64,000 nucleotides of DNA from Actinomycetota bacterium (GCA_020201525.1 JAIVGO010000105.1:57-64056), one strand, 5' to 3'; shown: positions 32,594 to 63,956, counted from the first letter of the stretch. Program-made: numbers and translations. Notes: a model not told the origin generated them from the sequence alone.

Positions 32594-33045
32594 GGTTCCG
32601 GCTCGAAGCATTCGATGTCGGTGATGAAGCCGACGCGCTCCTTGCGCCAGCGCGGGCGCACGCGCATGCCGGTCTTCATTGCTTCTTCGGACCCGGCGTC
32701 GACGGCGTGCAGGATCGCGGTGTCGGCGCCGTCGGGCTTGATGAGGGCGAACGCAAAGGGCTTCTGCAAAGGATGCTTCGCACGCGGTTGCGACACCCAC
32801 GCCCACGTCGTCACGACGCCGGCGGGACCGACCGGAGCGAATTCGATCAGCGTCTCCGCCGTCTCCGGGTCGTACTCGACCGGGGGGAATATCACTTTGC
32901 CGGATGAAGATTTGATGCCGAGCAGCTCGCCGTCGCGGAGTCCTGTCAGAAAGCGTCCGATAACAGGACCGACGCTGCGCGTGTAGTTGTATTCAAGGAC
33001 ATGCAGCGCCGACAGCGCCTCAGTCTCTTCTGCCATAGGACCCAA
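32590..33045 (-). CDS. DUF35-related OB-fold protein (no Zn ribbon); first gene behind a KstR-type operator
   Basis: OB-fold-like DUF35 pattern. TTG start at 33045 or ATG at 33036. TAGAACACGTTCCT sits immediately upstream. Confidence 0.7.
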   Translation of the reverse strand: MGPMAEETEALSALHVLEYNYTRSVGPVIGRFLTGLRDGELLGIKSSSGKVIFPPVEYDPETAETLIEFAPVGPAGVVTTWAWVSQPRAKHPLQKPFAFALIKPDGADTAILHAVDAGSEEAMKTGMRVRPRWRKERVGFITDIECFEPEP

Positions 33046-33047
33046 AG

Positions 33048-33061
33048 TAGAACACGTTCCT
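33048..33061. promoter_or_regulatory. KstR-type operator (TAGAACACGTTCCT) between fadD stop and the DUF35/thiolase operon
   Basis: Match to the KstR consensus TnnAACnnGTTnnA (13/14). Confidence 0.7.
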
Positions 33062-33081
33062 ATTTTTTGTGCAAGGCGGCT

Positions 33082-34626
33082 TTAGATGGCGCGTTCGCGG
33101 CCTTGCCAGTAGGGATCGCGTAGCGCTCGCTTGTAGAGCTTGCCGTTCGGATCACGCGGCAGCACATCGACGAAATCGTACGTACGCGGGCACTTGTACT
33201 TCGCAAGGCGCTCGCGACAGAATGCATCGAGATCCCCCGTCAATGCGTCACCGGGCGCAACGCCGGCGGCAGGCTCGATCACCGCTTTCACTTCCTCGCC
33301 CCAATCGTCGTGTGGAATGCCAAAGACCGCTGCGTCGCCGACTTTGGGATGCGACAGAAGCACGCCTTCGATTTCGGCGGGGTAGATGTTCACGCCGCCG
33401 GAGATGATCATATCGATCTTGCGATCGCACAAGAAGAGATAGCCGTCTTCATCGAGATAGCCGATATCACCGACCGTGAAGAAGCCTTCTTTCCACGACT
33501 TGTCGGTCTTCTCTTTGTCCTTGTGGTACTCGAAGCCGTAGTCGCCCATCTTGATGTACACCGTTCCCGGCTGGCCGGCGGGTGCCGGTTGTTCTGCATC
33601 GTCGAGAATGCTGATTTCGGAGATCGGCCACGGCTTGCCGACCGTTCCCGGTTTCTTCATCCACTCCTCCGGCGTTACGAGTGTTCCGCCGCCTTCCGTC
33701 GCCGCGTAGTACTCGTAAATGACGTTGCCCCACCACTCGATCATCCGTCGCTTCACGTCCGGCGGACACGGTGCCGCGCTGTGCACCATGACCCGCAGAG
33801 ACGACACATCGGCCTTCTTCTTCACGTCGTCGGGGAGTTGCAGAAGCCGGTGGAACTGCGTCGGCACCATGTGCGACGTGGTCACGCGATAACGCTCGAT
33901 GAGCCGCAGGGTTTCCTCCGGCGTCCACTTGTCCATCAATACGACACTGTGCCCGAGGTGCAATGAATCGAGCGTGAAGTTGACGACGGCGGTGTGGTAC
34001 AGCGGCGACACTGTCAGGTGCACGTTGTCATCGAGCGGCTGAATGCCGAACAGCGTCAGGAAGAGCCCGTTCAGCATGCCGTTTGTGTCGGGGTCGACCG
34101 ACGGTGTCGGCCGGCGCACGCCTTTCGGCTTGCCGGTCGTACCTGCCGTGTAGGTCATGACGGCCCCCGTCGAGCGATCTTCGGGAAGATCGGTCGGCTG
34201 TCCCTCCTTGAGTTCCGCGTACGGACGGAAACCCGGCAACGTTCCGACGGAGAACCGCGCCTTCTCGTGGAACTTCGTCTCGCCGACGGCACCGAGACAC
34301 GCGTCGGCAAGCGCCTCATGACCCACGAATGCCTTCGCGTCGGAGTCCGCCAGAATGTACGCAACCTCCGGCGCCGTCAGGTGATAGTTGATCGGAACGA
34401 TGTACCAGCCCGCCTGTAATGCTGCGAGGTACAGCTCGATGATCGCAGCGCCGTTCGGCAACATCGCCGCCACCGTGTCGCCGGGATCGAAACCAAGCGC
34501 ACGCAACCCGTGCACAACTTGGTTACAGCTCGCGAGCAAACGAGCGGCGGAGTGCTCGGTCCCGTCCGGCTCGACGAGCGCGAGGTGCTCCGGATCGGTC
34601 TGCGCCGCGACCCAAAATCCCGACAT
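33082..34626 (-). CDS. AMP-dependent acyl-CoA synthetase; start re-set to MSGFWVAAQTDP
   Basis: YTAGTTGKPKG motif. The tool's 164-aa N-terminal extension is junk. A KstR-type operator lies about 10 bp upstream of the ATG at 34626. Confidence 0.85.
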   Translation of the reverse strand: MSGFWVAAQTDPEHLALVEPDGTEHSAARLLASCNQVVHGLRALGFDPGDTVAAMLPNGAAIIELYLAALQAGWYIVPINYHLTAPEVAYILADSDAKAFVGHEALADACLGAVGETKFHEKARFSVGTLPGFRPYAELKEGQPTDLPEDRSTGAVMTYTAGTTGKPKGVRRPTPSVDPDTNGMLNGLFLTLFGIQPLDDNVHLTVSPLYHTAVVNFTLDSLHLGHSVVLMDKWTPEETLRLIERYRVTTSHMVPTQFHRLLQLPDDVKKKADVSSLRVMVHSAAPCPPDVKRRMIEWWGNVIYEYYAATEGGGTLVTPEEWMKKPGTVGKPWPISEISILDDAEQPAPAGQPGTVYIKMGDYGFEYHKDKEKTDKSWKEGFFTVGDIGYLDEDGYLFLCDRKIDMIISGGVNIYPAEIEGVLLSHPKVGDAAVFGIPHDDWGEEVKAVIEPAAGVAPGDALTGDLDAFCRERLAKYKCPRTYDFVDVLPRDPNGKLYKRALRDPYWQGRERAI

Positions 34627-34635
34627 GGGCGAAAT

Positions 34636-34649
34636 TAGAACACGTTCTC
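34636..34649. promoter_or_regulatory. KstR-type operator (TAGAACACGTTCTC), 10 bp upstream of the fadD ATG at 34626
   Basis: Consensus match (13/14), positioned over the promoter/RBS. Confidence 0.7.
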
Positions 34650-61745: not shown

Positions 61746-62230
61746 GACGAGGGGGGACGATGAAGGAATCCGATAGCTTCATTCGTGAGCTGGCTGCCGC
61801 GTTCTCGCTCGCGCACGCGCAAATCGCGAAGCAGATTCGGGATCTGAGCGACGACGCGCTCGCCTGGACGCCGGCAGTTGAGACGAATTCCATCTCCACC
61901 CTCGTTGTCCATGTTCTCGGGTCCGAAGCAGAGCTGCTGCGACTGATCAAAGGGCTACCCGCCCCGCGCGACCGGCCCGCCGAGTTTTCCGGACCTCCCA
62001 AAGACGCGGCAACCCTGCTCGCGAAGATCGACGTCGCCGAAGATCTGCTGAACGACATCGGATCGCAGATCGGCGAAGCCGACTTGCGCCGATCGTTTCT
62101 CCGACCCAGTGCCGTTCGAATCAAAGAACCGGGGTCGGGCTTGTTCTGGATCATCAACGGCTACGGCCATGCGCGCGAGCATCTCGCGCACATCGAGCTC
62201 ACGCGGCAGCTGTATGAGCGTTCAAAATAA
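61742..62230 (+). CDS. DinB/YfiT-like (DinB_2) family protein
   Basis: His-rich four-helix-bundle-like pattern (HVLGSEAELL...HAREHLAH). Start could be 61742 or the ATG at 61760. Confidence 0.65.
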   Translation: MRRGGTMKESDSFIRELAAAFSLAHAQIAKQIRDLSDDALAWTPAVETNSISTLVVHVLGSEAELLRLIKGLPAPRDRPAEFSGPPKDAATLLAKIDVAEDLLNDIGSQIGEADLRRSFLRPSAVRIKEPGSGLFWIINGYGHAREHLAHIELTRQLYERSK

Positions 62231-62241
62231 GGGGGAAGACG

Positions 62242-62628
62242 ATGACCAACCCCATCTTTTACGTCGACTCCTCGGCGATTCGCGAAGGAAAGATCGACGA
62301 GGTGAAGGTGAACATGAAAGAGCTCGCAGACTTCGCGCGCGCCAACGAACCGCAATTGATTTCCTACAACTTCTTCATAGACGAGCTCGGCGCGAGAATG
62401 AGTACGGTGGCGATTCACGCGGATGCCGTCTCCATGGAATTTCATATTGAGGTTGGAACGCCGTACTTTCGGAAGTTCACGGACCTGATCAACCTTGAAT
62501 CCATCGACGTATACGGGGAGCCGAGTGAAACTGTCCTCGCGCAGCTCCGGCAGAAAGCCGCGATGCTGGGTGCCGGCGGGGTAACCATTCACGAGCTTCA
62601 ATCGGGGTTCTCGCGCATTCGGGTCTGA
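62242..62628 (+). CDS. Small hypothetical protein (128 aa), possibly ABM/Dabb-like
   Basis: ORF with coding-like composition. No confident family. Confidence 0.5.
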   Translation: MTNPIFYVDSSAIREGKIDEVKVNMKELADFARANEPQLISYNFFIDELGARMSTVAIHADAVSMEFHIEVGTPYFRKFTDLINLESIDVYGEPSETVLAQLRQKAAMLGAGGVTIHELQSGFSRIRV

Positions 62629-62747
62629 CCTGAAGTCGAGCTCTCCGCGTTGGCGGGTCACGGTGGCGTGAGTTCTCCGTGCGTCTATACACGTAGGACG
62701 TGTATAGACAACAAAGTTAGCGTTGCTAAGAAACACCAAGAGCCAAA

Positions 62748-62761
62748 ACTGGAATCTGTTC
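62748..62761. promoter_or_regulatory. KstR-type operator variant (TGGAATCTGTTCTA) upstream of the FadA5-like thiolase
   Basis: TnnAATnnGTTnnA, with one half-site C to T. Confidence 0.55.
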
Positions 62762-62807
62762 TAGTTTCTGGCGTATCATCGGCGGTACCCCACAGACGGA
62801 GGCTCCT

Positions 62808-63956
62808 ATGGCGGAAGCCGTGATCATCGAGGCAGTTCGCACTCCAATCGGAAAGCGAAACGGTGCGTTGTCGGGCGTGCATCCGGCCGACCTTCTTGCG
62901 ACGACGCTGACGGAAGTCGTGAAGCGAGCGGGTATCGAGGCGAGCGAAGTCGAACAAGTCATCGGCGGCTGCGTGATGCAGGCCGGCGAACAAGCACTCA
63001 ACATCACTCGAACAGCTTGGCTGACGGCCGGCCTCCCCTACGAAACGGGGGCGACGACGATCGACGCGCAGTGTGGCTCGGCCCAACAAGCAAACCACTT
63101 GATTCAGGGCCTGATCGCGGCCGGCGCCATCGACGCCGGCATCGGTTGTGGCATCGAAGCCATGAGTCGCGTGCCGCTCGGCGCGAACGTCATGAACGGC
63201 CCCGGCACGTTCATCCCGCCGTCGTGGTCGATCGACTCGCCCGATCAATTCACCGGCGCGGAACGCATCGCGAAAAAGCGCGGGATCACCCGCGATGACG
63301 TGGACGCCTTCGGGCTCGCTTCGCAAAAAAAGGCGGCGAAAGCGTGGGCTGAGGCGCGTTTCGCGCGCGAGATCGTGCCGGTGGAGACACTTGATCCGGC
63401 GACGAATGAAACCGTTGTCGTCGGTCGCGATCAAGGACTCCGTGAAACCACGTTGGAAAAGTTGGCGGCATTGAAGCCGGTTCTCGACGACGGCATTCAC
63501 ACGGCCGGTACGTCGTCGCAGATTTCGGACGGGGGCGCCGCCGTGTTGTGGATGTCCTCGGACAAAGCAAAGGCGCTCGGCCTCGAGCCACGGGCACGAA
63601 TCGTTGCGCAAGCGCTCGTCGGGAGCGACCCGTACTTCCTGCTGGACGGGCCCGTGGACGCGACACGGCACATCTTCAAGAAGACCGGGATGACCATGAA
63701 AGACATCGACATCGTCGAGATCAACGAGGCGTTCGCATCGGTCGTCTTGTCATGGGCGCGCGTACACGAGCCGGACATGGATCGGGTCAATGTGAACGGA
63801 GGCGCGATCGCGCTGGGACATCCGGTCGGCGCGACGGGATCACGGCTCATCACGACGGCCCTGCACGAGCTCGAGCGCACCGACAAGACCACCGCTCTCA
63901 TCACGATGTGCTGCGGCGGCGGGCTCGGCACCGCGACGATCATCGAAAGGATCTGA
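62808..63956 (+). CDS. Acetyl-CoA C-acyltransferase (true thiolase, FadA5-like context)
   Basis: Thiolase motifs (...[10 protein letters not shown]..., [22 protein letters not shown]). KstR-type operator 45 bp upstream. Confidence 0.9.

Follow-up and report, generated by a model that had tools for sequence, protein, structure and literature searches.

A predicted KstR-type regulon for sterol side-chain catabolism, with a neighbouring Liv-type importer, in an Actinomycetota bacterium with Acidimicrobiia-like relatives

A 64,000-nt stretch of DNA from an Actinomycetota bacterium (GCA_020201525.1 JAIVGO010000105.1:57-64056; G+C 62.7%), henceforth called the window, was analysed for a regulon of the TetR-family repressor KstR. 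Judged from the sequence, and with a probability that we put at roughly 85%, a regulon for sterol side-chain catabolism under a KstR-type repressor is present in the window, which comes from an uncultured actinobacterium whose relatives are mostly Acidimicrobiia. The KstR-type circuit itself is already known, and because a KstR regulon has already been described for Nocardioides simplex, which is not a mycolic-acid bacterium, no new kind of circuit is claimed here; what is new is the lineage and an importer linked to the repressor gene.

Operators and the KstR-like repressor

Operators were scored with a weight matrix derived from the 47 sites of Mycobacterium smegmatis and Mycobacterium tuberculosis in Table 3 of Kendall 2007 (PMC1995591), a source that avoids circularity and whose training sites score 12.3–24.9 bits. 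The window contains eight sites at 14.2–19.5 bits, as compared to 0.18 expected at ≥14 bits in dinucleotide shuffles of the window, and the next matches, at 9.5 bits (59932) and 8.4 bits (53805), are both intragenic. The highest score, 19.5 bits, is reached by three sites, i.e., TAGAACACGTTCTC before fadD (34636..34649), the same sequence before the fadD-NMO unit (52608..52621), and CAGAACGTGTTCTA before a zinc alcohol dehydrogenase gene (35369..35382). These are followed by TAGAACACGTTCTT before a CYP125-family P450 gene (37806..37819; 19.0 bits), TAGAATGTGTTCTA, which has an AAT half-site, before echA (37887..37900; 18.1 bits), TAGAACACGTTCCT in the 45-bp gap from the fadD stop to the start of a DUF35 gene (33048..33061; 17.9 bits), TGCAACAGGTTCTA in the 61-bp intergenic region shared by an acyl-CoA dehydrogenase (ACAD) gene and the kstR-like gene (60556..60569; 17.4 bits), and TGGAATCTGTTCTA, the weakest of the eight, before a FadA5-type thiolase gene (62750..62763; 14.2 bits). 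The predicted regulated promoters thus carry operators of the KstR type, TnnAACnnGTTnnA or TAGAAC-N2-GTTCTA, with scores within the range of the published sites. The original prediction had listed these same eight sites, all of which are present in the sequence, seven at the positions it gave and the last starting at 62750 instead of 62748; its count of “at least eight” is replaced by exactly eight above the threshold. Its statement that each site stands at the start of a unit (DUF35/Ltp, fadD, adh, P450, echA, fadD-NMO, ACAD/kstR, and the FadA5-type thiolase) was borne out, as was the expected enrichment of the motif at gene starts in the matrix scan. By the gene map, for which some start codons were picked with the operator positions in view, 6.5% of the window is non-coding, and all eight operators fall there, each a short way ahead of a gene start; independent gene calls (locus L081) and Pfam domain boundaries were consistent with the map where they could be checked.

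Pattern searches were run alongside the matrix. The degenerate pattern TAGAACNNGTTCTA with up to two mismatches yielded nine matches (0.50 expected; nine were reached in none of 100 shuffles), and AGAACNNGTTCT with up to one mismatch yielded ten (1.24 expected). A KstR2-type motif gave a single match with one mismatch in the window, which is chance level, and a de novo ranking of palindromes against a zero-order background was dominated by GC-rich coding palindromes and thus uninformative. Used as a literal search pattern, TnnAACnnGTTnnA matched only twice (at 60556 and, as an intragenic chance match, at 45673), which 9 of 100 shuffles equalled; it is too strict, since C or T is the last base of four sites and AAT half-sites occur in two. 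This low literal count is what favours reading the palindromes as chance occurrences, or as promoter sequence shared without any repressor, but the eight sites at ≥14 bits against 0.18 expected, their dyad symmetry, their exclusively intergenic location, and the retention of sites at orthologous promoters whose flanks diverge leave such a reading with practically no weight.

The repressor gene (60583..61173, + strand) encodes a protein of 196 aa with TetR_N and TetR_C_20 domains (Pfam). In a sequence search of the PDB, M. tuberculosis KstR entries were on top (E 3e-33, 118 bits), followed by the Rhodococcus TetR protein 3bjb (85 bits), with all others at or below 45 bits and KstR2 at 27 bits; no other subfamily was closer. 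Identity to M. tuberculosis KstR is 40% overall and 63% across the first 60 aligned residues, which form the DNA-binding domain, and the recognition helix GTLYRYFPSK is the same in both proteins. Among NCBIfam models, the KstR equivalog model NF033703 scored best at 164 bits, with the runner-up at 53. An AlphaFold2 model (pLDDT 90.6) was searched with Foldseek, and the top 17 chains were all KstR, in DNA-bound and acyl-CoA-bound forms (TM 0.80–0.92, root-mean-square deviation 2.0–2.6 Å), followed by 3bjb and then by acyl-CoA-sensing FadR proteins. Relatives with 61–70% identity are annotated by JGI as “cholesterol catabolism regulator.” Among the characterised TetR subfamilies, the protein groups with KstR; it is a KstR-family homologue and probably a functional counterpart.

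Conservation was followed through 89 loci (labelled up to L089), comprising 81 loci around homologues of the TetR protein (1.23 Mb) and eight contexts of homologues of a solute-binding protein (SBP; see below). An identical TetR protein is present in the NCBI metagenome-assembled genome (MAG) GCA_046262895.1 and on a 67-kb contig, labelled “Actinomycetota bacterium”; the best match among species representatives is 68% identical, and the top 80 relatives are mostly MAGs of Acidimicrobiia, Acidimicrobiales, Iamiaceae, and Microthrixaceae together with cultured Aquihabitans, not Mycobacteriales. Matrix matches of at least 12 bits in the 1.23 Mb number 149, as compared to about 10 expected at the shuffle rate of the window, and in most of the 89 loci the motif is found together with the TetR homologues. 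Three operator places (kstR/ACAD, fadD-NMO, and fadA5) are shared with L002–L005, L082, L084, and L086–L089. The kstR/ACAD intergenic sequence aT-TGCAAC-[A/C]G-GTTCTA is unchanged in 11 genomes while its flanks diverge, TGGAAnnnGTTCTA stands at the equivalent position before fadA5 in L007–L010, L027, and L082, and the operator/promoter geometry of fadD-NMO is repeated in five relatives (L002–L004, L082, and L084). Immediately upstream of the TetR gene, the motif was not found in most of the 80 relatives, because the gene there ends a thiolase or ACAD operon, ahead of which the operator is found. These data also bear on the idea that the palindromes belong to another regulator encoded elsewhere and that the TetR protein has a different target: its score below the equivalog cut-off would fit that idea, but the recognition helix shared with M. 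tuberculosis KstR, the operator in its own promoter, invariant across 11 genomes, and the motif accompanying its homologues in most of the loci make it very improbable.

Regulated genes and promoter geometry

Behind the operator at 33048, genes at 22144..33036 (−) probably form one long operon, as suggested by their common direction and small gaps. In order of transcription, these are two DUF35 genes (32590–33036 and 32102–32593), ltp4 (31054–32109; model PRK07937 passed), ltp3 (29905–31053; PRK08313 passed), an ACAD gene (28765–29895), an SDR gene (27990–28814), a second ACAD gene (26802–27983), chsH2 (25870–26904; PDB matches 6ok1_B at E 1.6e-42 and 4wnb at E 1.9e-38), a third ACAD gene (24812–25873), ltp2 (23325–24500; 6ok1_A at E 2e-179, PRK07855 passed), and a fourth ACAD gene (22144–23325), all on the − strand. 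No separate ChsH1-type hydratase that could partner ChsH2 was found in the window; the 311-bp gap between the third ACAD gene and ltp2 (24501–24811) holds no recognisable gene.

The acyl-CoA ligase gene fadD (33082..34626, −) has its own operator, which also faces a divergent gene (34792–35268, +) for a Gly/Ile-rich signal-peptide protein of 158 aa, and the next operator precedes the zinc-type alcohol dehydrogenase gene (35415..36494, +; Pfam). The P450 (36582..37793, −) matches the reconstructed ancestor CYP125MRCA (8vxi) at E 1.4e-153 with 60% identity over 394 columns, which places it in the CYP125 family under the rule of >40% identity, the comparison being with a reconstructed ancestor; extant CYP124/CYP125 chains match at E 1e-97 to 1e-84. 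The reconstructed ancestor hydroxylates cholesterol and phytosterols at C26. Divergent from the P450 gene runs the echA unit (37909..42047, +), consisting of echA itself (37909–38706), whose product passes PRK07799 and reaches 370 on the EchA19 model (cut-off 400), i.e., an EchA19-like hydratase, a 4HBT thioesterase gene (38707–39306), and genes for two proteins with signal peptides, one of 500 aa without Pfam match (39343–40845) and one of 400 aa with a weak lysyl-oxidase match (40845–42047). The fadD-NMO unit (49913..52598, −) contains a fadD of the PRK07798 subfamily (51033–52598) and downstream of it an NMO-family gene (49913–51022). At the right end, the FadA5-type steroid 3-ketoacyl-CoA thiolase (62808..63956, +) scores 669.5 on NF005889 (cut-off 515), and gene calls on L081 show its unit continuing beyond the window into SDR and luciferase-like genes. 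The side-chain gene content put forward in the original prediction (Ltp2, ChsH2, Ltp3, Ltp4, P450, and FadA5) was thereby confirmed by family models or PDB matches.

Four observations concern neighbouring genes. Between kstR and fadA5, at 61224–62628 (+), lie genes for a GNAT acetyltransferase, a DinB-family protein, and a 128-aa protein, which look like a lineage-specific insertion; none of them has a counterpart in the related loci, where fadA5 adjoins kstR, and in L082 and L086 the same spot is taken by VapBC/PIN toxin-antitoxin genes. Below the side-chain genes, in a long co-directional run, a gene at 19311–20873 (−) encodes a FadD3-family acyl-CoA ligase that passes the equivalog model (760 vs 657 bits); mycobacterial FadD3 starts the degradation of rings C/D and is under KstR2. 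A gene at 17816–18247 (−), inside a 539-bp gap of the first gene map, encodes a protein of the SnoaL/DUF4440 (NTF2-like) fold, a fold shared with ketosteroid isomerases. At 3194–5985, with no operator near, a WS_DGAT_cat wax-ester synthase/DGAT gene adjoins a BD-FAE/alpha-beta-hydrolase esterase gene, and the two might act in the synthesis or hydrolysis of steryl or wax esters.

The regulon might also be real and serve general or branched-chain lipid and fatty-acid beta-oxidation, with the TetR protein as a KstR-family paralogue that senses ordinary acyl-CoAs. In keeping with this, the ACADs score best, though weakly, on pimeloyl-CoA dehydrogenase models, FadR acyl-CoA-binding proteins are the next structural neighbours after KstR, the P450 scores higher on CYP124, a hydroxylase of methyl-branched lipids, than on extant CYP125 chains, ring-opening genes were not found in the window, and the mycobacterial regulon itself was named “lipid degradation” by Kendall 2007 (PMC1995591). 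Four matches speak for sterols instead: the Ltp2-ChsH2 pair, which is specific to the cleavage of the last steroid side-chain unit and matches at the E-values given above, the thiolase that passes a steroid 3-ketoacyl-CoA equivalog model, the P450 at 60% identity to the CYP125 ancestor, and the FadD3-family (HIP-CoA ligase) gene at 19311–20873. A role in ordinary lipid oxidation is therefore regarded as unlikely, and sterol side-chain catabolism is retained as the probable function.

The distance from operator to start codon is 8–13 nt at six of the nine regulated starts, i.e., echA (GTG 37909, 8 nt), fadD (ATG 34626, 9 nt), fadD-NMO (ATG 52598, 9 nt), DUF35 (ATG 33036, 11 nt), P450 (in-frame ATG 37793, 12 nt; the N-terminal alignment to CYP125MRCA begins at residue 10 of the latter), and kstR (60583, 13 nt). 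As this spacing leaves no room for a Shine-Dalgarno sequence, the mRNAs of these six starts would have little or no leader, which would put the −10 region on the 3′ half of the operator. Leaders of 32–44 nt with GGAGG or AGAGG are found at the other three starts, adh, ACAD, and fadA5 (for adh, 32 nt with GGAGG and then ATG 35415). At six sites, a TTGnnn hexamer stands 7–8 nt upstream of the operator (TTGCAC at 7 nt for both DUF35 and P450; TTGCGA for fadD, TTGAAG for adh, and TTGCAT for fadD-NMO at 8 nt; and TTGCCC). At the ACAD promoter, the left half of the operator reads TTGCAA on the other strand, 17–18 nt from a −10-type box (TATAAA, TATAGT, or TTATAG) that is 9–10 nt from the ATG, and this arrangement is conserved; the half-site would be invariantly TGCAAC rather than TAGAAC because the other strand supplies the TTGCAA −35 box of the divergent operon.

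In the mechanism that we infer from this layout, a dimer of the 196-aa TetR protein would bind the eight 14-bp palindromes TAGAAC-N2-GTTCTA, each of which overlaps a predicted promoter. At the six leaderless-type starts, the bound repressor would lie over the −10 region and exclude RNA polymerase, whereas ACAD and fadA5 would have the operator over the −35/spacer region of their promoters instead. A single dimer at the kstR/ACAD operator could close both divergent promoters and so establish autoregulation. Repression would presumably be relieved by an acyl-CoA intermediate of side-chain degradation, which the regulated CYP125-type P450 and acyl-CoA ligases would make, as in M. tuberculosis; release by 3-oxo-4-cholesten-26-oyl-CoA is a defining trait of KstR.

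Several observations weigh against a sterol regulon under a KstR ortholog with the promoters proposed above. The repressor reaches 164 bits on NF033703, for which the cut-off is 280, and the alignment gives its ligand domain an identity of only about 28% to M. tuberculosis KstR, so that its effector may differ. The likeness to KstR in sequence, best NCBIfam model, and predicted structure stood, but the orthology asserted in the original prediction fell short of proof, the lineage being Acidimicrobiia-like as well; because the curated equivalog score was failed, the protein was filed as a KstR-family homologue. A KstR regulon comprises genes for sterol uptake (mce4), the side chain, and rings A/B; side-chain genes are present here, but no kshA, kstD, hsa, or mce4 genes were found in the 64-kb window or in 10 kb beyond it, so that the prediction covers the side chain and not complete sterol degradation by the organism. 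An E. coli-type promoter scan of the operator regions found no promoters, since its −10 rule (A at position 2, T at position 6) excludes TCTAnT and TATAAA. The T found two bases past the operator may be part of an extended operator of 18 bp and not of a −10 box. Finally, enrichment of the upstream TTGnnn is only weak at the sites of more distantly related genomes (13 of 268 orientations), and as a −35 element it is clearly conserved only at the orthologous fadD-NMO and ACAD promoters.

Liv-type importers in the locus

The original prediction overlooked two ABC importers of the Liv type, along with several secreted proteins, that are located in or downstream of regulated units. The first importer lies in a seven-gene operon (52638..60521, −) that is divergent from kstR and in which genes overlap or are separated by gaps of at most 15 nt. 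It begins with the ACAD gene (59367–60521; 384 aa, pimC-like) and continues with genes for a lipoprotein SBP of the Peripla_BP_6 family (57920–59356; lipoprotein signal ending in IATAC), a fused LivHM permease (55985–57904; BPD_transp_2, Pfam), and two ATPases (55270–56004 and 54749–55273; both ABC_tran, Pfam). The last two genes encode a secreted protein of 509 aa with a C-terminal anchor and no Pfam match (53204–54733) and a protein of 189 aa with two transmembrane helices and a weak DUF5671 match (52638–53207). The SBP, the permease, and the two ATPases, one of them with a BCA_ABC_TP_C tail, together make up an importer of the HAAT (Liv) type. The family of the 509-aa protein is rare, with 165 representatives among 1.84 billion; its confident model (pLDDT 81.5) consists of long antiparallel beta strands, a disordered linker, and a C-terminal transmembrane helix, and comparison with the PDB yielded no meaningful fold match. 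A PDB sequence search with both SBPs of the window likewise gave no useful match and no solved relative.

The transporter module adjoins kstR in L002–L005 and occurs with kstR in four different gene orders across L006–L008, L011, L017, and L027. Of the eight contexts of SBP homologues sampled, the TetR/ACAD-transporter arrangement recurs in six (L082, L084, and L086–L089), where operators stand in the intergenic region and ahead of fadD; in L083 the module is present but TetR and operators are missing, and L085 holds an orphan SBP. Because a KstR operator heads the module and the linkage to kstR survives four gene orders, the importer was considered a candidate for uptake: together with its two accessory proteins it might, tentatively and at clearly less than even odds, take up sterols or steroid acids in non-mycolate Actinomycetota, in the role that Mce4 has in mycobacteria. 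A literature search retrieved no paper linking KstR to such a Liv-type transporter.

The second system is located downstream of fadD-NMO (42048..49759, −) and comprises genes for a Cys-rich secreted protein of 208 aa without Pfam match (49133–49759), a secreted protein of 848 aa with a C-terminal anchor and likewise without Pfam match (46514–49060), an SBP (45030–46517) whose gene overlaps that of the 848-aa protein start to stop, i.e., is translationally coupled to it, and a fused permease/ATPase of 991 aa (42048–45023). The 153-bp gap after the NMO gene contains no operator according to the published-site matrix, so that control of this system by KstR is uncertain. In L086, a similar pair of proteins of about 219 and 839 aa follows NMO.

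Comparison with known systems

The circuit resembles that of mycobacterial KstR (Rv3574/MSMEG_6042; Kendall 2007, PMC1995591), a TetR repressor with a 14-bp operator, TAGAAC-N2-GTTCTA, that partly overlaps the −10 region, as is proposed here. In both, the promoter region of the repressor gene holds an operator in common with a divergent acyl-CoA dehydrogenase gene, as befits autoregulation; the targets include cyp125, echA19-like, ltp3/ltp4, fadA5, and chsH2/ltp2 genes; and one divergent intergenic region holds two operators, P450/echA here and Rv3570c/Rv3571 in mycobacteria. They differ in that the repressor here has only 40% overall and about 28% ligand-domain identity to its mycobacterial counterpart and scores below the equivalog level, that its relatives are Acidimicrobiia-like MAGs and not Mycobacteriales, and that the divergent operon contains a Liv-type importer and two envelope proteins, while mce4 and genes for rings A/B are missing from the window. 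The resemblance to the kstR/fadE34 divergence, which the original prediction had pointed out, is one of arrangement; the divergent ACAD, 384 aa long and pimC-like, is at most a putative FadE34 ortholog. FadE34 is about twice that length.

Beyond the mycolic-acid bacteria, there is a precedent in Nocardioides simplex VKM Ac-2033D (PMC7593942), for which KstR and KstR2 regulons were predicted, the KstR motif being called “very similar” to that of mycobacteria; the KstR regulon, which is transcriptome-backed, comprises side-chain and ring genes and an mce cluster (Table 4). N. simplex belongs to the class Actinomycetes and has mce in its regulon, whereas no mce was found in the window and the present regulon is a prediction from sequence. 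The reach of the KstR repressor and operator would thus extend beyond Mycobacteriales and Nocardioides into uncultured Actinomycetota of Acidimicrobiia-like affinity, with recognition helix and operator unchanged. Such organisms are often met in metagenomes from soil and water. A literature search found no paper tying KstR to Acidimicrobiia, and Bergstrand 2016 lists no member of Acidimicrobiia among steroid degraders. The presence of the circuit in such a lineage suggests that it is old and portable, and the operator could be used as a marker that delimits sterol regulons in MAGs.

With Mce4 of the mycolic-acid bacteria the importer shares, as a functional analogy only, predicted KstR-controlled and ATP-driven uptake in a sterol locus with accessory envelope proteins, but the two belong to unrelated families, the importer here being built from a Peripla_BP_6 SBP, a BPD_transp_2 permease, and two ABC_tran ATPases (HAAT/Liv type). 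Sterol uptake without Mce4 is explicitly stated as a gap by Bergstrand 2016, and the regulon offers a concrete candidate for it in bacteria that lack Mce4; if the importer does take up sterols, this would be of clearly higher interest than the regulon itself.

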